IMG/VR virus record: IMGVR_UViG_2721755676_000001
Reading direction: 5' to 3' (one strand)
Origin: a virus
Taxonomy: Duplodnaviria; Heunggongvirae; Uroviricota; Caudoviricetes
Length of the DNA stretch: 64,000 nt
Below the pieces are notes generated by a model, which saw only the letters and a list, made by a program, of their open reading frames with translations, did not search any database and had not been told where the DNA came from. A program made the position numbers and the translations under genes. Shown piece by piece: positions 2,147-49,268 of this stretch; the stretch's first letter is position 1; each line of letters starts with the position of its first letter.

Positions 2147-3402
2147 TGGCAATCCCGTCCTCGCTCAGTCTTGTGCAACTGCATTCTGGACAGATGAAAG
2201 TCTTCCAGTCTCCGCATCGATTTAAAGTTGTTTGTGCTGGTCGACGCTGGGGAAAATCCCGGTTGTCGATCTCCACTATTATTCGTGCGGCGGCAAAGGA
2301 AAAAAAGCAAAGGGTCTGGTATGTCGCTCCTACTTACCAGATGGCTCGCCAGATTTTGTGGGACGATCTACAGGAAGTTCTGCCTCGTAAGTGGGTTAGG
2401 AAAAAGAACGACACCACGATGACAATCGTGTTGAAGAACGGTTCGGAGATCGCCCTCAAAGGTGCTGATAAGCCTGACACTCTGCGCGGCGTAGCGTTGC
2501 ATTTTGTAGTGCTTGATGAATTTCAGGATATGAAGGCTGACACCTGGTACAAGGTGTTACGACCTACTCTTTCATCGACACGCGGCGGTGCACTGATCAT
2601 TGGTACGCCAAAAGGCTTCTCGGAATTTCACAAACTGTGGACTATAGGCCAGAACGTAGAGCTGCAAAGAAAGGGACAGTGGAAGAGCTGGCAGTTTGTA
2701 ACTGCCGATTCTCCGTTTGTGCCTACGGCGGAAATTGAAGCTGCTAAGAACGATATGGACCCGAAATCGTTCGCTCAGGAGTACCTGGCGAGCTTTGAGA
2801 ACATGTCCGGGCGCGTTTACTACCCGTTCGATCGTAACGTGCATGTAAAACTGCTTCAGTTCAACCCTCGGTTGCCTATATGGGTAGGGCAGGACTTCAA
2901 CATTGACCCGATGTCTTCCGTAATTTTGCAACCTCAGCCAAATGGTGAGCTATGGGCAATTGATGAATTGGTGCTCTTTTCCTCTAACACGGCAGAAGTT
3001 TGTGATGAGCTTGAGAGACGCTTCTGGCGCTGGAAATCACAGGTAACGGTATTTCCAGATCCGGCAGGTGCTTATCGCCAACATGCTCGTGGGGAGTCTG
3101 ACGTAGACATATTCAAAGAGAAGGGATTCTTACGTGTCGATTATTCGAAAAAGCACCCGCCAATTGCGGATCGTGTTAATGCTGTTAACCGAATGCTGAT
3201 GTCCGCATCTGGAGATATCCGGCTGTATATCGATCCGAAGTGCAAGCATTTGATTGATTCACTGGAAAAAGTCATCTACAAGCCTGGAACACGAGATATG
3301 GATAAGACAGGTGGCATTGAGCATAGTGCAGACGCATTGGGCTATCCAGTACATCGTAGGTATCCAGTCAAAAACCGTGTTATTCTTGGTGGTTCTCGAT
3401 AG
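2146..3402 (+). CDS. terminase large subunit
   Basis: Walker A-like VVCAGRRWGKS and Walker B-like VVLDEF near N-terminus, nuclease-like C-terminal half; position before portal. Confidence 0.85.
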   Translation: MAIPSSLSLVQLHSGQMKVFQSPHRFKVVCAGRRWGKSRLSISTIIRAAAKEKKQRVWYVAPTYQMARQILWDDLQEVLPRKWVRKKNDTTMTIVLKNGSEIALKGADKPDTLRGVALHFVVLDEFQDMKADTWYKVLRPTLSSTRGGALIIGTPKGFSEFHKLWTIGQNVELQRKGQWKSWQFVTADSPFVPTAEIEAAKNDMDPKSFAQEYLASFENMSGRVYYPFDRNVHVKLLQFNPRLPIWVGQDFNIDPMSSVILQPQPNGELWAIDELVLFSSNTAEVCDELERRFWRWKSQVTVFPDPAGAYRQHARGESDVDIFKEKGFLRVDYSKKHPPIADRVNAVNRMLMSASGDIRLYIDPKCKHLIDSLEKVIYKPGTRDMDKTGGIEHSADALGYPVHRRYPVKNRVILGGSR

Positions 3403-7851: not shown

Positions 7852-8286
7852 ATGAAACCAGCAAAAATTGTTTTATTAGAACCGCAATTTTCCGGTTATT
7901 CGGGAATGCTGTGCGGCGTTCAGTTCGAGAACGGGGTATCCGTAGCGGAGTTGCCTTTTATCGATCAGCAGAGGATTTGTGCTTCAATGCGAGCGTCAAC
8001 AGTAGAGGGCAAAAATGTCTCTCCGTCTGCCGCATACAGTGATCGTGGTGAATTGACAGCAGACCTGATTACCGAGCCAGCAGCGCCTGACATTGTGCCA
8101 ATGAAACGTGGAACACCAGATGAACCGGCCAAACAGATCCAGGCTTTCACACGAGAAGAGCTGGAGTCAATTGCAGACAACGAAGGTATTGCCGGTCTAC
8201 GAATTATTGGTAATCAGGTTGGTGTCAAAGCGAAAGGAATTGTCGAAATGATTGACGGCATCCTGAAAGCACAAGGCGGTGAGTAA
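7852..8286 (+). CDS. hypothetical head-associated protein
   Basis: ORF with GAGGAGAG RBS; stop-start overlap with next gene. Confidence 0.5.
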   Translation: MKPAKIVLLEPQFSGYSGMLCGVQFENGVSVAELPFIDQQRICASMRASTVEGKNVSPSAAYSDRGELTADLITEPAAPDIVPMKRGTPDEPAKQIQAFTREELESIADNEGIAGLRIIGNQVGVKAKGIVEMIDGILKAQGGE

Positions 8287-40989: not shown

Positions 40990-41276
40990 GCAATTTAACT
41001 TCTTGGGACTGGTGGTTGGCCACCTATTTCTTAGCGGCCGGAGTCGCATTCGCCTTTTACGTAGGTCAGTTAGTCGTAAAACTGCTGCTGATTAAATTTG
41101 CCAGTCATAAACGTATCGATGATGGTCTGTGGCGTCTTGGCACCCTGGTGGAAACTCGCTACGGGCAACTTAAGGAGAACGAAACCATTACTATCCAAGC
41201 GAAACGGTTCACTGCCACCATCACAAGAACACCTAGTCGTAGAGTGGCATTGATCAAAAAAGTCACAACCGAATAA
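40986..41276 (+). CDS. small membrane protein
   Basis: N-terminal TM WWLATYFLAAGVAFAFYVGQLVV; coupled to upstream ORF. Confidence 0.5.
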   Translation: MSNLTSWDWWLATYFLAAGVAFAFYVGQLVVKLLLIKFASHKRIDDGLWRLGTLVETRYGQLKENETITIQAKRFTATITRTPSRRVALIKKVTTE

Positions 41277-41285
41277 AAACATATT

Positions 41286-41313
41286 GATAAGTATTTACTT
41301 ACTTATCTTTTAT
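41286..41313 (+). terminator. stem-loop GATAAGTA-TTTACT-TACTTATC followed by TTTTAT (weak terminator; also a TAAGTA-family site)
   Basis: Read directly. Confidence 0.4.
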
Positions 41314-42054
41314 GTATAAGATGACTTTGTTTTCGTTGAGACGCGACTGTTTGAACTTAAATACAAGTGCAAACGAAGAAGTCTATCTGGCAGTAGCCTA
41401 ATAAGCCAAACACCAGCGAGGTCAGTTTCCAGCCTCGTTACCGAAATGGGACACACTGAGCGAGTGTGATTGCAGAACGCAGGAGGGAACATGAATGTTC
41501 CCTCCGATGAAGTAACAGAATGGGCGGTTGGTATATTTTCAACTCCATATGACTCCCGGATTCTTAGCCACTGACCGCCCATCCTGTTACGTCATTTTGT
41601 TCAATTATGTCGTTTATACTGGGTTAAAAAGCGGCGACGTAGCCCGGCTGGTATGGTTAGCCAGCACACAACGTTGAGGCCATTACATTTTTATCAATTC
41701 TAAGGTTCTATTCACAGAGATACCGGCGAGCGTTGATATGTAACATGTTGGGCAAACATTCAATCGGAGTAGTGGCCTCAACGTTGTGAAGACAGGATTG
41801 TTGTGTAGGTTTAACCACTGTTGCCATTGGTGCCTGTTTTCACAACAAATGATTCCATACATCACATTGTATAAATTACAAAGTAGGTGCTGTCCTCAGA
41901 AACATCATCTACTTAAAGATTTTGCCTTCTACTATTGAGCGAAGTCGAAAGCGTCTGGCACTAACGAAAAGTGCAAGTAGCGGTGCGTTTCCTGGCAGAA
42001 ACTAAACCGTTGCGATTGGCACTGTTGAGTAATAAATACTGGCAGTGCTGAATT

Positions 42055-42126
42055 GATGGTGTAGCTCAGCGGTAGAGCAGTTGGCTGTTAACCAACTGGT
42101 CGGTGGTTCGAATCCACCCACCATCG
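42055..42126 (+). tRNA. tRNA-Asn (anticodon GTT)
   Basis: Cloverleaf folded by hand: acceptor GATGGTG/CACCATC, anticodon loop CTGTTAA, T-arm GGTGG-TTCGAAT-CCACC, discriminator G then CCA. Confidence 0.85.
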
Positions 42127-42134
42127 CCAATTTA

Positions 42135-42218
42135 GGGGAGTTAGTCCGTAGGGGCAGCGGAGTAGACTGTAAATCTACTGTCATGGCGACTCGGGTGGTT
42201 CGACTCCATCACTCCCCA
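42135..42218 (+). tRNA. tRNA-Tyr (anticodon GTA), long variable arm
   Basis: Acceptor GGGGAGT/ACTCCCC, anticodon stem GTAGA/TCTAC with loop CTGTAAA, long variable arm, TTCGACT T-loop, CCA encoded. Confidence 0.8.
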
Positions 42219-42225
42219 CCAAATT

Positions 42226-42298
42226 GCCGGTTTAGCTCAGTTGGTAGAGCGCCTGCCTTGTAAGCAGGATGTCAGCGGTTCGAGTCCGCTAACCGGCA
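42226..42298 (+). tRNA. tRNA-Thr (anticodon TGT)
   Basis: Acceptor GCCGGTT/AACCGGC, D-arm GCTC-AGTTGGTA-GAGC, anticodon loop CTTGTAA, T-arm AGCGG-TTCGAGT-CCGCT, CCA encoded. Confidence 0.85.
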
Positions 42299-42525
42299 CC
42301 AATACAACGATAAGATCATTACGGTTAATCGTCGTTCATGTGCACAATGACTGGTCGAAAGGTAGTGATCTTACCGTTGTGGTGGATTCGCAGACTGATG
42401 CGATAGCTTTCTTGGATGTTAGGGAAATGCGGCCGCAAATCTTCCCTTTCGCGAGCGGTGATCGTCCGTAGTCCTAATTGGCTGCACCGTATGCCGGAGA
42501 TTCAGTACCGGCCACCACAACGGCC

Positions 42526-42609
42526 GGAGAGTAGGGAGCATGGTGCTCAAGCGGTCTTGAAAACCGTCCCATTGCGCAAGCGATGATGGTTCGATTCCAT
42601 TACTCTCCG
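42526..42609 (+). tRNA. tRNA-Ser (anticodon TGA), long variable arm
   Basis: Acceptor GGAGAGT/ACTCTCC, anticodon loop CTTGAAA, long variable arm, T-loop TTCGATT, discriminator G, CCA encoded. Confidence 0.7.
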
Positions 42610-42789
42610 CCAGACACAGCGTTGAGCGGTTTGGCCTTTTAATCACCCAGATTAAGACTCCGCTAACATAAACCAGACCGCTCAACGCTGTGATAGACAA
42701 TTACGGCAGACGTTCTTAACCATAGCTTGCTAACATCCTAGCAACACTTTTTTCAGCGCAAAATTCAAAGGGGCTTCGGCCCCTTTTTG

Positions 42790-43686
42790 TTAATGATTAT
42801 CTAGGTATGCTATTAACTCATTTTTAATGATAAGTGAATATTCTAAAATCTCACCTAGTAAATATTCTGCTTTTTTAAAATGCCAACCCATATAGCCTAA
42901 TTTTTCTGAAGGTCCTTCTAACAACATTATAATATCGCTGTCTTTCTCTTTGGCAATGTATTGTCTTATTTCTATCTCAAAATTATTTCTTGTCTTCCCA
43001 CTTATTGATGATTCATCCAAAACTTTAGTTATAAACTTTTCCGTGTCGATGAACTTTCCTGCATTATGCACAATTGTATGTCTTAGCAGCTCAATTAAAG
43101 TGATCTCGAAACGATAGTTTTTACCTATCTTGTTATTTATTTCTACGTCTCTAAAATTGGGTAACTTTCTTCTAAATACTTTCAGGATTTTTTTTGGTGC
43201 TTTATTATTTCTTTTTATCGCATTGTAGTAGGTTTCCATGTCTCCATTTTGTTCGATCTGAACATTTTTAAATTCACTAGGTTGCCAAAAATGGTCATGA
43301 ATACTCACTGTATGGGCATATATTTTCTTAATATAGTCTTCAAACAATTCATATGCTTCGGTTATAACCCATTGATACTGTTTATTTTTTAACACTTCAC
43401 ATAACTTTATCTTCTCTGAAAGATCTGTTCTAGTATGCCCAATTCCAAATGTTGAACCTGTATATGGATTTGAGCATGTATGGTTTGCTAACGTTGTCCC
43501 GCATGTTAATGGGAAAGTATTATTAGCATCTAGATTTTGTACGTTTTCAAGTGTATGCTTAAATCGCTTTATGTTGTCTTTCGTTGTAACATTTATATGA
43601 CCTAACAAGTCACAACGTAAAATTATTTCATTTCTTAAATCAGTGAATATTTTTTCGACAAAAGAACCTGATGGGTTTTCAATCAT
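42790..43686 (-). CDS. hypothetical AT-rich protein with HEPN-like R-x4-H motif (candidate abortive-infection/defence protein)
   Basis: 298-aa minus-strand ORF, Lys/Asn/Ile-rich, AGAGG RBS; motif RHTIVH; directly flanks tRNA cluster. Confidence 0.5.
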   Translation of the reverse strand: MIENPSGSFVEKIFTDLRNEIILRCDLLGHINVTTKDNIKRFKHTLENVQNLDANNTFPLTCGTTLANHTCSNPYTGSTFGIGHTRTDLSEKIKLCEVLKNKQYQWVITEAYELFEDYIKKIYAHTVSIHDHFWQPSEFKNVQIEQNGDMETYYNAIKRNNKAPKKILKVFRRKLPNFRDVEINNKIGKNYRFEITLIELLRHTIVHNAGKFIDTEKFITKVLDESSISGKTRNNFEIEIRQYIAKEKDSDIIMLLEGPSEKLGYMGWHFKKAEYLLGEILEYSLIIKNELIAYLDNH

Positions 43687-43861
43687 CTAAACCTCTACGA
43701 AAATCTTACCTATAAGACAGTCCTTAATGTAATCTGTTTTCTCCACTACTTCAAATTACCTCACAATCTATTGATAGGTGACTACCTACTTACATACAAA
43801 GTTGATTTATAGTATAGTCCCTCTGTTGCGTATTAGTATTTTAAAAGGCATCTGTTAAGTT

Positions 43862-44107
43862 ATGACGATCACTATCTACGGACGAGATAACTGCTCATAC
43901 TGCAAACGTGCGGTCGAGCTGGCGAAGCAACTAAAGGGACATGGCTACGGTGATTATAAGTACATCGACATCACCACTGCCGGTATCGATAAGGAAAAAC
44001 TTAGCGAAATTGTTGGAAAACCGGTAGAGACTATCCCCCAGGTGCTGATCGATGGCCAGCCGATTGGCGGATACACAGAGATGGCATCTTTCGTAAGTTT
44101 CTTATAA
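43862..44107 (+). CDS. glutaredoxin (NrdH/Grx-like)
   Basis: 81 aa with CSYC active site near N-terminus and glutaredoxin-like C-terminal GG motif. Confidence 0.8.
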   Translation: MTITIYGRDNCSYCKRAVELAKQLKGHGYGDYKYIDITTAGIDKEKLSEIVGKPVETIPQVLIDGQPIGGYTEMASFVSFL

Positions 44108-44198: not shown

Positions 44199-44335
44199 TT
44201 AAAGACCACTTCACCCTTGCGTTCAGCTTCAGCTTTAGCAGTCATGAATCGTTTGATCATTTCGACTTTGCTAGCATGGATAGTTTTAAAATCAATCTTC
44301 CCTTTGTTTTGGGTAGTGTTGTGTTCGTATCGCAT
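44199..44335 (-). CDS. hypothetical small protein (45 aa; not in ORF track)
   Basis: Minus-strand ORF ATG 44335 to TAA 44199, overlapping the 3' end of the upstream minus-strand gene by 44 nt. Confidence 0.25.
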
Positions 44336-44846
44336 AGGAAGCTCCGTCATTTAAATAAGTTAGGCCACGCTCTTGTGTAAATCTCTTCACATATCTCTTG
44401 TATGTGGCCATCAGTTCTTCGCGTTCTGCCGCAAAGAATAAAATCTGTATGCCTTCATTGTCGGCAACTTTGAGCATTAAGTCAACTAAAGTACCGTAAA
44501 GGTATTGAAGTTCACCTAAAGTAAGATTAAAAGACCCTTCGGGTTTGGCAAATACGTTAATTGGCTCTTCCGCTCCAAGAGCAGCATTCTGGAGCTGTTC
44601 TTGCTGCCTGTCAAGTTGAATCATGTCCACAAAACTAACGACAGATACACACAACCCATAAACATCAGCACCTAACATATTATGCATAGTTTCTGCGGCA
44701 ACAGGATCTAAAGAAGGAGGGCAAAAGACTAAACGGTATCTAGCCTTACGAGCTTCATTGCCAGAGAAAACAAAGTCTATATCTAAATATGACAGATCAC
44801 CCGGCAATGAAGCCAAACCAGGTGTAACCAACTTATGCAAGTGCAT
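44292..44846 (-). CDS. hypothetical protein
   Basis: 184-aa minus-strand ORF divergent from the recombinase gene. Confidence 0.5.
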   Translation of the reverse strand: MHLHKLVTPGLASLPGDLSYLDIDFVFSGNEARKARYRLVFCPPSLDPVAAETMHNMLGADVYGLCVSVVSFVDMIQLDRQQEQLQNAALGAEEPINVFAKPEGSFNLTLGELQYLYGTLVDLMLKVADNEGIQILFFAAEREELMATYKRYVKRFTQERGLTYLNDGASYAIRTQHYPKQRED

Positions 44847-45113: not shown

Positions 45114-46217
45114 ATGAAAAATAGCTTTGACAGAGCACGCGCTGCGGAGAACACCTCAAAAGAGGCGATAGAGTATCTCGAAAGAGCATCTCAAATGCAG
45201 GCCGTTATGATCTCCCAGGTCAGCAATGACATGAGATTCTCGGACGCATTCATGTTATTCACTCGCTTATCTCTGCTGATAACCAGACGTCGGCCAGAGA
45301 TCGCTGTTCATTGTATTTTGATACATGTTTTGCCGCACATTGCCGATGTAAAAGTAAGTGACATTAATAGGTTCATGGTGAACCAACTGGTCAACCCACT
45401 AATACTGGATGGCAAAATTGTTATGGGCCGCCGCGTTTTCTCTCTGATGAAGCAGTTCCTTAGCTGGTGCGCCTTCCAGGGGATGATAGACGTGTCACCG
45501 TTAAACGATATGTCACTAAACAAAGTTGCCGGTGGCGCAAAGCCCACACCTCGCGAGCGGAAGCTGACCGACGCAGAGGTATGGGTGTTCTGGAATATAT
45601 GGGACTACTTCAATGTGTGCGCTGGTACAAAATGGGCGGCCAGGCTGTGTCTTGTATCCGCAAGACGACCTGACGAAGTACTGCGGGCTAAAAAAAGTGA
45701 GTTCAATCTTAAGCGTGGGGTTTGGAATCAAGGCAAGAGGAACAAATCTGCCCGTGAGCATTCTCTGCCTTTAAGCTCATTAATGCGCACTTGTATTGAA
45801 GAGTTGTTCGAATATGGTAAAGACAGCCAGTGGCTCGTGCCTTCGAATAAAAAAATCGGGAAAGACCTTCCTATGTCTAAAGTGGCAATAGCCCAGGCAT
45901 TACGTCGTATTCTGGAACGACCAGAACTGATGGAGCTTGAGCCATTTACACCCCGAGACTTGCGCCGTACTGCGCGTAGTTACTTCCCAGCATTAGGCAT
46001 AAGCCAGGAGGTATCACGCAAAATCATGAACCACAGTCTTGAGGGGATAGATCGAGTCTACGACCGGCACGATTATATGGACGAGATGCGAGACGCCTTA
46101 GAAAGTTTCTCGACGTACATCGCATCAATCGTAGAGCAACCGGATTTAGACGAAATTGACCACAAATTCAAGGGAGATCGTCTATCAACAGAGCTTATTC
46201 GTGTAAATTTTTCATAG
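45114..46217 (+). CDS. tyrosine recombinase / integrase family protein
   Basis: C-terminal catalytic-region pattern TPRDLRRTARS...IMNHSLEGIDRVYDRHDY (R, H, Y positions); upstream Arg ARRPDEV; GGTGA RBS. Confidence 0.65.
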   Translation: MKNSFDRARAAENTSKEAIEYLERASQMQAVMISQVSNDMRFSDAFMLFTRLSLLITRRRPEIAVHCILIHVLPHIADVKVSDINRFMVNQLVNPLILDGKIVMGRRVFSLMKQFLSWCAFQGMIDVSPLNDMSLNKVAGGAKPTPRERKLTDAEVWVFWNIWDYFNVCAGTKWAARLCLVSARRPDEVLRAKKSEFNLKRGVWNQGKRNKSAREHSLPLSSLMRTCIEELFEYGKDSQWLVPSNKKIGKDLPMSKVAIAQALRRILERPELMELEPFTPRDLRRTARSYFPALGISQEVSRKIMNHSLEGIDRVYDRHDYMDEMRDALESFSTYIASIVEQPDLDEIDHKFKGDRLSTELIRVNFS

Positions 46218-46598
46218 AGACTTTATGGCCTCAACAACCTTTTGTGATGCGCCTTTCTCTTTACCGAATCGCTCGTTATATGCAGCAAGAACCTGTTTTT
46301 CGTCCTCGTTAAGAGGAGCGGTGCCTTCTTTGTATAAAAATGCTGCGAGTTCAGGTTGGCGTTCTTCCAGCACCATCATCATAAGACGACTTGGCTCAAT
46401 ACCCAGCGCCAGCGCCAACGGACGAACCTTATCGATAGGCAAAGGAATTTTGCCACTTTTAATTAAAGAAAGGTTGTTGGCATTTTTATAACCAATAAGT
46501 CTGGCTATTTGGGCCTGACTCATAGGTGAGGATTCAATCAGCCCTGCGATAAAAGCAGCATAGCGACTTTCTATAAATTCAATCTTGTTGTCAGACAT
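46212..46598 (-). CDS. XRE-family helix-turn-helix transcriptional regulator (putative repressor)
   Basis: HTH-like MSQAQIARLIGYKNANNLSLIKSGK; convergent with recombinase gene; AAAGG RBS. Confidence 0.7.
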   Translation of the reverse strand: MSDNKIEFIESRYAAFIAGLIESSPMSQAQIARLIGYKNANNLSLIKSGKIPLPIDKVRPLALALGIEPSRLMMMVLEERQPELAAFLYKEGTAPLNEDEKQVLAAYNERFGKEKGASQKVVEAIKSL

Positions 46599-47159: not shown

Positions 47160-49268
47160 ATGTCTAAAAAACGTTCCATCAAAGAGGTTCAGGACTTCCG
47201 TGACAGTGTAAAACGAGTAGTCGCTCTCCTTTCAGGTAAAAACATCCCTGTTGCAGAACGAGGGGACGACGCTTATGTACGCTATAACGATGATGGAGAG
47301 CCAATTCTCGTAAACATCCCATCAATCCCGGATAACGCAACACCGGCATTGATGAATGCTGTGCGCGGATTTCTCGATCATGAGGTTGCTCACATTTTGT
47401 TTACCGATATTCGTGTGTCCAACAAAATGAGAGAAAAAGGACGCGTTCCTTCCTGGTCGCTATGGAATGCCTTAGAAGACGTGTTCATCGAGCGAAAAAT
47501 GGGTCAGGTCTTTAACGGAACAAGACGTAATCTGATGGCAACTCAGCGCCTTATAATCGAAAAAGTCTTTAAACCAAAGGCTTCAGAGGCTATTGCTTAT
47601 TGTGGCAAAGATCAGCGCGCGCTTTTTCTAAACTTCTTTCTCTGTCCGGTTGTAAGAGCCTGGGATGGCCAAGCACCGTTCGTAGATTTCATGGATGAAC
47701 ATTGGCCTGTCATTGAGAAACCAATTTCATTATTAAAAGAACATGGTATCGATGTGGCCGTGCGTAACATGTCTTGCACCGAGGATTGTGTAAAGGTGGC
47801 TGCGACCATAGCTAAGATCCTCAAAGACACTGAAAGTGAAAGCAAAGGTAAGGAGTCAGCTCCGGGAAAAACTTCCGATCCTTCAGACGCTGACCAGACG
47901 GATGCCTCTGGAGAAAACAATGAAGACAACGAAGATCATGAGACTCCCTCAGTGTTAGATAATCACAAATCTATCAAATCAGAATCACATAGTAAGTACA
48001 AACATGATAATAACGACAGTGATGATTCAGATAATTCTGAATCATCAGAAACAATATTCGATGATACAGAAAATGATAAAGAGGTATCAGATTCTGATGC
48101 TTCTGATAACGCGGCGTCAGAATCATTAACCGCTGACCACGAAAAAAGAAAAACGACAGAAGACGGCTCTTCAGATATCCCAACTCCGTCAAAAATGAGT
48201 CTGGAAGAGGCTTTAGAGGAGCTGGATAGCATAGAAGATGAAGTCGGAGGCATGACAGAAGATGCTCTATCCGAAACGATTAAAAGCGAGTTAACAGAAA
48301 GCTCGAAAAGCGAATACAGGCCATACAATCGCTCATACGACTTCATCGGCTCGATTGATCAGGCAGAAGCCCATATCAAACGGCTTATTAAAACATTCTC
48401 CGATATTGATTTGGGAGGATATCCAATCAGCCGCTATCGCATCGTTCCTGAAGGCAACCAGCTCTTCGACAAATATATTGAAAAGCATCTTTCGTCAGGT
48501 GTTTCGTCGACGCTGGCAAAAGACCTGGAGCGAGCAATAGCAAGCAGAAACAGAGTTCAGTTTATACCGGGCCAGCGTCGGGGGCGCATTCATGGTTCTA
48601 GTATCTACAGATTAGCAATGAATGATGCTCGCGTGTTTCGTAAAAAAGAAGAATCTAAAGCCGTTAACGCCTGTGTTCAACAAGTGATTGATTTATCAGG
48701 TTCAATGAGTGGTATAACGATTAAACTGGCTCTTGCAAGTGCATATACCATCGCCGATGCCCTTGATCGAATAAATGTTCCCAACATTATCACCGGCTTC
48801 ACTACATTTGGTAGTCATATGGCGGCAGGAGAACTTAAGGCTGTCAAGTATGAGTTCTCTCGCTTTGAATCTTTAATGCTACCTATCATCAAAAATTGGA
48901 ATGAAAAGGTAAATTCTCGCGAAGTTCGCTCACGTATGGGGTGCGTAGGCTACACATTCCCACTTCTTAATAACGTGGATGGTGAAAGCATAGCCAGCCT
49001 TGCATCGTTATTTTCCGGTCGCATGGAGGACAGGAAGATCATGCTTGTTCTGAGTGATGGCGCGCCGTGGGCTGTTGGGAGAGGTTTTGACGCTCATTTG
49101 CGTTCAGTTGCGAAGCAAATTGAAACGCAGACTGATATTGATTTGATGGCAATTGGCATCATGACTGACGCACCGGAGAAATTTTACTCAAATCATGCCC
49201 TGGTAACGAGCGTTGATAGTCTTGGTTCATCTGTAGTTACTGAACTATCTCGTATCATTTTAAAGTGA
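47160..49268 (+). CDS. CobT-like protein with C-terminal von Willebrand A domain
   Basis: MIDAS motif VIDLSGSMSG in C-terminal domain; long acidic Asp/Ser/Glu-rich linker; paired with downstream AAA+ ATPase. Confidence 0.7.
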   Translation: MSKKRSIKEVQDFRDSVKRVVALLSGKNIPVAERGDDAYVRYNDDGEPILVNIPSIPDNATPALMNAVRGFLDHEVAHILFTDIRVSNKMREKGRVPSWSLWNALEDVFIERKMGQVFNGTRRNLMATQRLIIEKVFKPKASEAIAYCGKDQRALFLNFFLCPVVRAWDGQAPFVDFMDEHWPVIEKPISLLKEHGIDVAVRNMSCTEDCVKVAATIAKILKDTESESKGKESAPGKTSDPSDADQTDASGENNEDNEDHETPSVLDNHKSIKSESHSKYKHDNNDSDDSDNSESSETIFDDTENDKEVSDSDASDNAASESLTADHEKRKTTEDGSSDIPTPSKMSLEEALEELDSIEDEVGGMTEDALSETIKSELTESSKSEYRPYNRSYDFIGSIDQAEAHIKRLIKTFSDIDLGGYPISRYRIVPEGNQLFDKYIEKHLSSGVSSTLAKDLERAIASRNRVQFIPGQRRGRIHGSSIYRLAMNDARVFRKKEESKAVNACVQQVIDLSGSMSGITIKLALASAYTIADALDRINVPNIITGFTTFGSHMAAGELKAVKYEFSRFESLMLPIIKNWNEKVNSREVRSRMGCVGYTFPLLNNVDGESIASLASLFSGRMEDRKIMLVLSDGAPWAVGRGFDAHLRSVAKQIETQTDIDLMAIGIMTDAPEKFYSNHALVTSVDSLGSSVVTELSRIILK

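Follow-up and report, generated by a model that had tools for sequence, protein, structure and literature searches.

A tRNA cluster of an SSU5-like phage-plasmid and the widespread X-Y structured RNA in its spacer

What do the transfer RNA (tRNA) genes of a phage-plasmid supply, and what occupies the long gap that sets the last of them apart from the rest? We took up both questions at a cluster of four tRNA genes in the window, a 64,000-nucleotide (nt) stretch of a Caudoviricetes virus (IMG/VR record IMGVR_UViG_2721755676_000001). An earlier note, made from the sequence alone, had described tRNA-Asn, tRNA-Tyr, tRNA-Thr and tRNA-Ser in tandem here and had suggested that the spacer before the fourth may hold a degenerate fifth tRNA. 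We found the tRNA cluster to be of a known, ordinary kind. The spacer contains a fold that is conserved as RNA structure on the tRNA strand, as its covariation supports. It belongs to a family of paired elements, a hairpin (X) followed by a structured RNA (Y), which appears to be undescribed and is the part of the locus worth following up.

ARAGORN called four tRNA genes, and no more, in the window; all lie on the + strand and have the anticodons GTT, GTA, TGT and TGA that the earlier note had given. Their tandem order on the phage gene strand and the CCA encoded in all four, which we checked by inspecting the sequence, were likewise borne out (Table 1). The cluster starts at 42055 as described, but with the final CCA included it ends at 42612 and not at 42609, and the spacer before the fourth gene, which had been put at 225 base pairs (bp), measured 224 nt (42302-42525). 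Matches of tRNA-Asn, tRNA-Thr and tRNA-Tyr to the Rfam tRNA model RF00005 (gathering score 29) had E-values of 1e-15 to 6e-5. There was no match of tRNA-Ser to this general model; it was found by ARAGORN and by RF01852, the tRNA-Sec model, only, and it fits the latter because its body is unusual. The body has a possible 8-bp acceptor stem with a 4-bp T stem, a D stem of 4-5 bp with a loop of 3-5 nt, and a 6-bp variable arm with a GCAA loop, while the anticodon loop, CUUGAAA, carries UGA, an anticodon of Ser. The D stem carries compensatory changes relative to the Klebsiella and T5 copies. A8 is able to pair with U76 and G60 to join the variable arm, an option that T5 Ser1 shares; since the eighth acceptor pair showed no covariation among the available sequences, the fold may be 7/5 instead. 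Discriminator bases, Thr pairs and variable arms were judged by the E. coli tRNA identity rules. The discriminators (G73 for Asn and Ser, A73 for Tyr and Thr) and the long variable arms of Tyr and Ser agree with the E. coli identity sets, and G1-C72 and C2-G71 were read from the sequence of tRNA-Thr. By cloverleaf, anticodon and identity elements, the four are predicted to function as bacterial elongator tRNAs.

No degenerate fifth tRNA was detected in the spacer: ARAGORN made no call there, no member of the Rfam tRNA clan matched at E<=10, and a T-loop-like motif was absent. What repeat analysis and alignments revealed in its place was a hairpin, X2, which starts three bases past the CCA of tRNA-Thr, followed by an element of ~150 nt, Y2. 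Y2 is closed by helix P1, in which 42376-42384 pairs with 42513-42521 and 42374-5 with 42522-3 (closing strands CCGUUGUGGUGG and CCACCACAACGG). Inside P1 lie hairpin 1 (42388-42392 with 42399-42403, loop GACUGA), a structured, variable core (42404-42492) and a last hairpin (42493-42497 with 42508-42512), and a loop-loop pairing is predicted between 42394-42398 and 42502-42506. The hexamer GUUGUG occurs both in the 3' arm of X and in the 5' strand of the Y closing stem and is complementary to two copies of CACAAC. X2 stands directly 5' of Y2 and shares GUUGUG with P1, which is the arrangement that marks the X-Y family. The full Y scaffold is present as well, namely P1, a GAAU-type junction, a GNCUGA loop in hairpin 1 and a last-hairpin loop with UCAG(C/U).

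At least 170 viral contigs contained the X-Y unit, and at least 120 were hit by a degenerate pattern for the beginning of Y. The Y elements came from two fixed-pattern scans, and divergent members were probably missed. The search pattern fixed part of the Y 5' block, but it put no constraint on the paired partners, on the 3' block or on the 3'-anchored sample. When we looked for the conserved 3' block, which lay outside the search pattern, it followed 120 of the 133 located Y 5' blocks (those contigs together with the window and eight related loci). Conversely, a 3'-anchored pattern yielded 54 more loci, and the 5' block was present in 44 of the 55 matches at them. With one genome per species, 37 matches had both blocks and 22 were without the 3' block, where ~9 chance pattern matches are expected by our own arithmetic. 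Matches with both blocks were mostly in Enterobacterales, along with two in Aeromonas, one in Marinobacterium, one in an assembly assigned to Noviherbaspirillum and a few in further metagenome assemblies. One 291-nt X-Y variant occurred in 890 of 5426 complete Escherichia coli genomes, and a 30-nt Y 5' block in 1331 of the 5426 (at 1006 places on chromosomes and 833 on plasmids); none of the matches listed for these two sequences in E. coli genomes bore an RNA annotation.

The 86 unique Y elements were 92-222 nt long, with conserved ends and a hypervariable core between them. The consensus of the 5' end was GUUGUGGUG-AAU-GCGCA-GGCUGA-UGCGC and that of the 3' end GCCGG-AGAUCAGCA-CCGGC-CACCACAAC. 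We counted by hand four differences between the window's Y2 and the 26-nt 5' consensus, and a scan gave no match within three mismatches. Two of the four are a compensated pair of hairpin 1, and one is compensated across the loop-loop pairing (A42394 with U42506).

Pairing was tested on 76 distinct Y scaffolds, each joining 36 nt from the 5' end to 36 nt from the 3' end through a 4-nt linker. The three Y helices were 94% paired, with nine pairs changed on both sides in 35 cells; none of 500 shuffles equaled this, and slid controls were 28-58% paired. Over the pairing tests on these scaffolds the range was 94-95% paired, with 9-10 double-sided pairs in 35-39 cells. The loop-loop helix of GCUGA with UCAGC was 98.2% paired, as against 39.5% in a register offset by one nt. 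One of its pairs covaried (G-C in 64, G-U in 6 and A-U in 4), and the window's copy has A-U. Among the Y pairs, G.U outnumbered A.C by 61 to 16, and this excess indicates an RNA read from the + strand, the same strand as the tRNAs. The Y2 subfamily, made up of the copies from the window, from P7 and D6 and from Klebsiella phage BUCT_49532, had eight compensated pairs, five of them in the variable core.

The X hairpin, which consists of a 13-bp inner stem with an ACAAC/GUUGU extension, was found directly 5' of 152 Y elements (114 unique). The unique copies carried many compensatory changes, and their loops ranged from 7 to 269 nt. X2 homologues adjoin the tRNA arrays of Klebsiella lambdoid phages. 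The motif GGTTCGAnTCC, which resembles a T loop, was present in 13 of the 114 unique X loops where we calculated ~0.8 to be expected, and is lacking from the loop of X2. In D6 (locus L003, ~2605-2700) and the 12 other X loops concerned, the T-arm-like sequence GGGTTCGAATCCC may be a tRNA remnant or mimic. X1, a paralogue of X2 lying 5' of the tRNAs, has compensatory stem changes in its Klebsiella and SSU5 relatives. The hairpin just after X1 shares GTTGTG with the X1 3' arm and is called Y1-like here, not canonical Y, because it is without the conserved hairpins. X3 lies directly 3' of tRNA-Ser and is kept in Cyrano, CMS-2020a and Klebsiella phage-plasmids.

The units occupy a few recurrent genomic places. 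P22-like and lambdoid prophages have X-Y between the gene for the Q antiterminator and those for holin or lysozyme, also a tRNA slot, and P1-like and SSU5-like phage-plasmids have it within tRNA operons. The largest X-Y cluster (26 contigs) lies 3' of an S24 repressor gene. This commonest viral variant (locus L021, ~7930-8230, and 25 similar contigs) stands 5' of a DUF2303 gene and 3' of the S24 (LexA/CI-like) repressor gene, and units of its type also adjoin divergent CII(CP76)- and Ash-family genes, an immunity-region context that suggests expression in the lysogen. In 21 of 120 contigs tRNA genes lay within -700/+900 nt of X-Y, and they shared its strand in every case. Across the fetched loci, host loci included, the tRNAs were Asn-GTT (23), Thr-TGT (20), Arg-TCT (16), Ser-TGA (15), CAT (14) and Tyr-GTA (6). 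In phage BUCT_49532 (locus L004, MZ374361, 1863-2659) the Y element, 75% identical to that of the window, is 64 nt 3' of a same-strand HNH endonuclease gene; there is no tRNA nearby and no proper X hairpin, and the HNH gene sits in the usual place of X, as if a homing endonuclease had inserted there.

Searches for a described counterpart covered all 4227 families of Rfam 15, including the prophage small RNAs AgvB, AsxR, STnc100 and Esr41. The spacer 42302-42525 had no match at E<=10, and 12 related X-Y loci had none at the gathering score. An exact-sequence search with conserved 16- and 17-mers gave no paper in the literature library covered. Several candidate identities were also tried and set aside. 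A tRNA-like 3' end of Y was rejected for want of a universal CCA past P1 (CCA follows in 18 of the 86 elements). Pairing of the X loop with the Y core in the manner of a P4-type immunity RNA found no support, cognate and non-cognate duplex energies being alike (Mann-Whitney p=0.50). With T4 rnaC/rnaD and the T5 tRNA region, Y had no motif in common within 7 substitutions, and the architecture of T4 rnaC differs. A hammerhead-like reading of CUGAUG was dropped, as covariation places its U and G in the stem of hairpin 1.

Table 1. Positions of the tRNA genes, hairpins and structured RNA elements in the window
Feature	Coordinates	Strand	Method or evidence	Properties
X1 long hairpin	41667-41788	+	20-nt inverted repeat, 95% complementary	arms CACAACGTTGAGGCCATTAC / GTAGTGGCCTCAACGTTGTG; loop 82 nt
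Y1-like hairpin	41783-41846	+	14-nt inverted repeat, 93% complementary; kept in Cyrano, CMS-2020a	GTTGTGAAGACAGG ... CCTGTTTTCACAAC
tRNA-Asn(GTT)	42055-42129	+	ARAGORN; Rfam tRNA model 75.5 bits	G73; CCA encoded
tRNA-Tyr(GTA)	42135-42221	+	ARAGORN; Rfam tRNA model 40.0 bits	long variable arm; A73; CCA encoded
tRNA-Thr(TGT)	42226-42301	+	ARAGORN; Rfam tRNA model 76.5 bits	A73; CCA encoded
X2 hairpin	42304-42380	+	inverted repeat and fold	19-bp stem (42304-42322 with 42362-42380), one A.C mismatch; loop 39 nt
Y2 structured RNA	42374-42523	+	97.6% identity with P7/D6 segment, 75% with Klebsiella phage BUCT_49532; family and subfamily covariation
tRNA-Ser(TGA)	42526-42612	+	ARAGORN; Rfam tRNA-Sec model (RF01852) 46.6 bits, gathering score 47	G73; long variable arm; CCA encoded
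X3 hairpin	42615-42692	+	20-nt inverted repeat, 95% complementary	arms CACAGCGTTGAGCGGTTTGG / CCAGACCGCTCAACGCTGTG; loop 38 nt
Intrinsic-terminator-like hairpin	42767-42786	+	terminator scan; kept in Klebsiella phage vB_Kpn_1825-KPC53	AAAGGGGCTTCGGCCCCTTT then TTGTT

We then turned to what the four tRNAs may supply. Codon usage was compared with one crude caller of open reading frames (ORFs), which gave 49 ORFs with 18,449 codons in the window and 45 ORFs with 14,340 codons in 50 kb of E. coli K-12. Per thousand codons, ACA stood at 16.4 in the window against 6.8 in K-12 (ratio 2.4, rank 3 of 61) and UCA at 14.9 against 7.2 (2.07, rank 5), while ACU reached 16.1 against 8.9 (1.8, rank 8) and UCU 16.2 against 7.9 (2.04, rank 7). 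The two Asn codons together stood at 47.3 against 33.5 (ratio 1.4) and the two Tyr codons at 30.8 against 23.2 (1.3). E. coli tRNA-Thr(UGU) and tRNA-Ser(UGA) with cmo5U34 decode A-, G- and U-ending codons. Given this decoding and the ratios, codon supply accounts well for Thr and Ser and poorly for Asn and Tyr.

The companion idea, that such tRNAs make up for host tRNA depletion by anticodon nucleases, is a reasonable one, since three of the four anticodons (Thr-UGU, Asn-GUU and Tyr-GUA) are published nuclease targets (PMC12409363, PMC12445682, PMC11555353). AriB of the PARIS system cleaves host tRNA-Lys(UUU) as well as tRNA-Thr(UGU) and, more weakly, tRNA-Asn(GUU), with the cut falling between nt 40 and 41; the motif it cuts is U36AAUC|A41, and the change U39A abolishes cleavage (PMC12409363). 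Thr-UGU and Asn-GUU are thus shared with the window, where ARAGORN called no tRNA-Lys(UUU). We compared the window's tRNAs with K-12 thrU, tyrU, asnT and serT and with the phage T5 tRNA region. The Thr anticodon arm of the window is CCUGC-CUUGUAA-GCAGG, so that nt 36-41 read UAAGCA, as in T5 Thr, against UAAUCA in K-12 thrU. The Asn arm is GUUGG-CUGUUAA-CCAAC, with UAACCA at nt 36-41 against UAAUCC in K-12 and UAAGUU in T5. Both tRNAs are therefore substituted at the AriB site, and with U39 of U36-A-A-U39-C40|A41 lost they should be poorly cut by AriB, a prediction read from the sequence. All 19 phage Thr(UGU) copies that we collected have G39. The Tyr tRNA was 82% identical to T5 tRNA-Tyr and 71% identical to K-12 tyrU; because Tyr and Ser are closer to T5 than to host copies, we infer that the tRNAs are of phage lineage. 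For Tyr, the relevant nuclease is PtuAB of retron-Eco7, which degrades tRNA-Tyr(GUA) and from which phage Tyr tRNAs rescue (PMC11555353). The main lethal target of P2 Old is tRNA-Thr(UGU), for which paired CNG motifs in the anticodon stem are needed, and a phage Thr(UGU) with altered CNG motifs and a shorter stem rescues from it (PMC12445682). The sister phage-plasmid CMS-2020a strain SCU-175 (locus L010, 1925-2000) and loci L017 and L057 have a tRNA-Thr(UGU) with the arm GUCGC/GCGAA, in which the CNG motifs are altered and the stem is just 4 bp, the pattern reported for P2-Old-resistant phage tRNAs. The Thr tRNAs of close plasmid relatives should thus resist different nucleases.

The content of the cluster also varied among relatives. 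SSU5 has tRNA-Asn only; the Klebsiella relatives have Asn, the X-Y spacer and Ser; and Cyrano has Asn-Thr-Ser with 8 nt from Thr to Ser, without Tyr and without X-Y. A second CMS-2020a isolate has the same four tRNAs as the window and a spacer of 490 nt. P7 and D6, which are unrelated P1-like phage-plasmids, have Asn, Thr, ~450 nt and then the same tRNA-Ser, and the 165 nt 5' of their tRNA-Ser are 97.6% identical to 42364-42528 of the window. In the P7 record (AF503408) this tRNA-Ser, at 3051-3137 of the fetched locus, is unannotated though called by ARAGORN. The D6 record (MF356679) has three tRNA features on the strand opposite to the ARAGORN calls, and according to its note tRNAscan-SE assigned no amino acid to the Ser tRNA.

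Taken together, we favor a joint reading of the locus, to which we give about an even chance: 41667-42786 is one untranslated unit that carries four functional elongator tRNAs, serving both codon supply and nuclease evasion, and one X-Y RNA. The region would be transcribed as one RNA and ended by the intrinsic terminator at 42786. The tRNAs would add decoding capacity for A/U-ending Thr and Ser codons, which are ~2 times commoner in the phage than in E. coli K-12, and would also stand in for host tRNAs destroyed by defense nucleases. Codon supply and nuclease evasion are both supported and are inseparable here; they are mutually compatible, and their combination ranks first among the readings of the tRNAs. 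Codon supply alone, with a phage-plasmid more A+T-rich than its host using poorly served codons and the overlap with nuclease targets coincidental, seems to us unlikely, if still a serious contender. The high ranks of ACA and UCA, the similar enrichment of ACU and UCU and a G+C content of 44-50% over most of the window all agree with it. AGA and AUA are classic E. coli rare codons, and related temperate phages also encode Arg(UCU) and a CAU-anticodon tRNA (tRNA-Ile in the P7 record). It does not fit well with the modest enrichment of Asn and Tyr codons, each set of which is read by a single abundant host isoacceptor, and it leaves the changes at position 39 of Thr and Asn, which parallel T5, unexplained.

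A number of observations also weigh against the joint reading itself. AGA, AGG, AAG and CGA are enriched as much as ACA and UCA without a matching tRNA in the window, which tells against codon supply in either form. T5 Lys, Thr and Asn tRNAs jointly neutralize PARIS (PMC12409363); with T5 Lys reported as required to bypass B185 PARIS and no tRNA-Lys(UUU) here, the cluster alone should not defeat B185 PARIS. Loss of U39 is not general, since the Asn tRNAs of P1, P7, D6 and SSU5 retain UAAUCA, and because AriB determinants exist outside the anticodon arm, resistance is unreadable from nt 39 alone. The window's tRNA-Thr keeps CUG (nt 28-30), CAG (nt 40-42) and a 5-bp anticodon stem, which is not the pattern of resistance to P2 Old, and with both CNG motifs and this stem it may well be Old-sensitive. 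The evasion of PtuAB by T5 has been ascribed to abundance (PMC11555353), and a sigma-70 scan found no + strand promoter in 41000-43000. As for Y, a discrete terminated gene was rejected, as a terminator-like hairpin within 250 nt 3' was present at 49 of 144 loci (34%).

What X-Y does is a separate matter. We give somewhat less than an even chance to a gene of its own, for an undescribed, widespread phage non-coding RNA that acts in trans, for example as a decoy or regulator of a conserved host or defense factor, with the core as its specificity. tRNA maturation would probably free X-Y, with RNase P cutting 4 nt 3' of Y at tRNA-Ser and the 19-bp X stem serving as a plausible RNase III site. The freed product would be a compact stable RNA, with a conserved kissing-loop scaffold that may stabilize it or be bound by a conserved host factor; its specificity would reside in the variable core. 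Expression would come from tRNA operons, late-operon leaders and immunity regions of temperate enterobacterial phages. The Y scaffold would be tRNA-like in topology, not in sequence. It is less probable, about on a par with codon supply alone, that X-Y is a cis-acting spacer, in which an RNase III stem and a folded RNA bar Rho loading and nothing functions after cleavage. X-Y always lies in untranslated polycistronic stretches (tRNA operons, the Q-lysis leader, past a repressor gene), X stems of 18-19 bp are suited to this, GUUGUG has two alternative CACAAC partners, which would suit a processing-linked switch, and Cyrano dispenses with X-Y. Such a spacer leaves unexplained the near-invariant loops and junctions across genera and the hypervariable structured inserts of up to ~160 nt with compensatory changes within a subfamily.

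A DNA-level role is quite improbable in our view. The CACAAC/GTTGTG-flanked modules would then be recombination sites, attC-like boundaries or homing-endonuclease targets that shuffle tRNA genes, in line with the modular tRNA content of close relatives, with the direct ACAACG repeats that flank X-Y (the Cyrano junction has a single ACACAA), with a tyrosine recombinase gene 2.5 kb off, with the HNH gene in the X place in BUCT_49532 and with the homing endonucleases of the T4 and T5 tRNA clusters. The G.U excess and the constant tRNA-matched orientation are unexpected for a site in double-stranded DNA, and the element occurs in phages with unrelated recombinases or none nearby. An integron attC site or DNA cruciform was rejected specifically: CACAAC and GTTGTGG misfit the cores RYYYAAC and GTTRRRY, and the recombinase belongs only to the general Phage_integrase family. 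DNA roles could be secondary to a conserved RNA gene. Least probable is the decayed fifth tRNA. The T-loop-like X loops of some relatives, D6 among them, imply that tRNA remnants or mimics do occur at the X position elsewhere, but the window's spacer gave none of the tRNA signals and aligns with a family of quite different conserved helices.

The surroundings of the cluster identify its replicon. The region shared 99.1% of its sequence identity with Escherichia phage CMS-2020a and was 97.7% identical to phage Cyrano, and its upstream part had 80% identity with Salmonella phage SSU5. More than 1000 PLSDB plasmids match it, mostly typed non-mobilizable; among the matches listed, most were ~70-140 kb, from E. 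coli, Klebsiella and Salmonella hosts. These identities and matches together indicate that the window is an SSU5-like phage-plasmid. Upstream of the cluster, on the same strand, are a DNA ligase gene and small ORFs. The ~750 nt 5' of the tRNAs (41300-42054) are without a long ORF; 41300-41800 is 80% identical to SSU5, and besides X1 and the Y1-like hairpin there are an inverted repeat of 22 nt (41507-41528 with 41574-41595) and a perfect palindrome of 11 nt (41482-41505). Matches of 41300-42054 to transfer-messenger RNA-like Rfam families were weak and not significant. The terminator-like hairpin is the likely end of the non-coding transcription unit.

Past this hairpin follow an opposite-strand ORF, a glutaredoxin gene, the tyrosine recombinase gene and a CobT-like gene (47160-49268), in this order. 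The opposite-strand ORF (42790-43686, - strand, 298 aa) matches phrog_35492, of unknown function, and has no Pfam or PADLOC match; ORF 44292-44846 (- strand) also has no Pfam or PADLOC match and in PHROGs matches unknown-function families only, so that a defense or anti-defense identity for these two ORFs was rejected. The bin 43001-44000, which overlaps ORF 42790-43686, has 33.8% G+C, against 44-50% in most of the window. Since Cyrano has different genes at the position of 42790-44000, this appears to be a variable accessory slot directly past the tRNA terminator. The tyrosine recombinase gene (Phage_integrase family, 45114-46217, + strand) is next to an opposite-strand gene for a 128-aa regulator-like protein (46212-46598), and the Cyrano homologues of this pair are annotated as integrase and putative repressor.

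The tRNA set offers a compact natural example of phage tRNAs mirroring the tRNA-cleaving defenses that are met, and it makes two predictions: the window's Thr and Asn should be spared by AriB, and its Thr should remain a substrate of P2 Old. X-Y uses phage tRNA slots and joins a near-invariant scaffold to hypervariable inserts, and it was unannotated in the records inspected; if trans-acting, it would add a new and common participant to the conflicts of phages with their hosts or with one another. Among known systems, the closest in arrangement are the P1-like phage-plasmids P1, P7 and D6, whose operon of trnA-Asn, trnT-Thr, tciA/terB and a CAU-anticodon tRNA annotated Ile lies 5' of ban. Like the window they have Asn(GUU) and Thr(UGU) in tandem, the same Thr anticodon arm and a temperate plasmid lifestyle, and in P7 and D6 tRNA-Ser(UGA) is preceded, as in the window, by the near-identical Y2 element described above. 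The window differs in its added tRNA-Tyr, in a spacer of 224 nt against ~450 nt with two X-Y units, in having C39 where the P1-type Asn has U39 (UAAUCA), and in its SSU5 backbone, which is unrelated to P1. In the P7 record the spacer RNA is unannotated, as is the Ser tRNA.

Phage T5 shares the Thr, Asn and Tyr anticodons, has the same UAAGCA in Thr and likewise an Asn without U39, and resembles the window in the Tyr tRNA and in the same unusual body of Ser1(UGA); according to the T5 record, tRNA-Ser1 becomes an effective (amber) suppressor after an anticodon change. T5 is virulent, however, and its 24 tRNAs include the required tRNA-Lys(UUU), whereas the window is without Lys and its resistance is predicted from sequence features. 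(8/4) tRNA-Ser has been reported in bacteriophages (Mukai et al., PMC5389517). Like such an allo-tRNA, the window's Ser has a long variable arm, G73 and a small loop on a long D stem, and its acceptor may be of 8 bp with a T stem of 4 bp; its anticodon, on the other hand, is UGA, as is usual for Ser, and does not imply recoding. The lambdoid Q-to-lysis slot holds X-Y alone, tRNAs alone or both, as in Klebsiella phage ST16-OXA48phi5.2 with Q, Asn-Phe-Thr-Arg, X-Y and holin. The window differs in that it is not lambdoid and in that no Q gene or late promoter was identified adjoining the cluster.

The nearest known analogues of X-Y in kind are the stable RNAs of T4 (rnaC and rnaD) and T5 (RNAI, RNAIII, RNA1, RNA2 and others), which like X-Y are structured RNAs of ~100-170 nt among tRNA genes, on the same strand and of unknown function. 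In T5 (locus L250, 10285-13950) and T4 (locus L248, 1409-1672) they are annotated beside HNH/GIY-YIG homing endonuclease genes, and T4 rnaC has a strong fold (z = -4.6) with a tRNA-like T arm at its end. They have no sequence or motif similarity with X-Y, which differs from them in occurring also far from tRNAs and in its conserved scaffold with a hypervariable core. X-Y may nevertheless help to illuminate the old puzzle that these T4 and T5 RNAs present.

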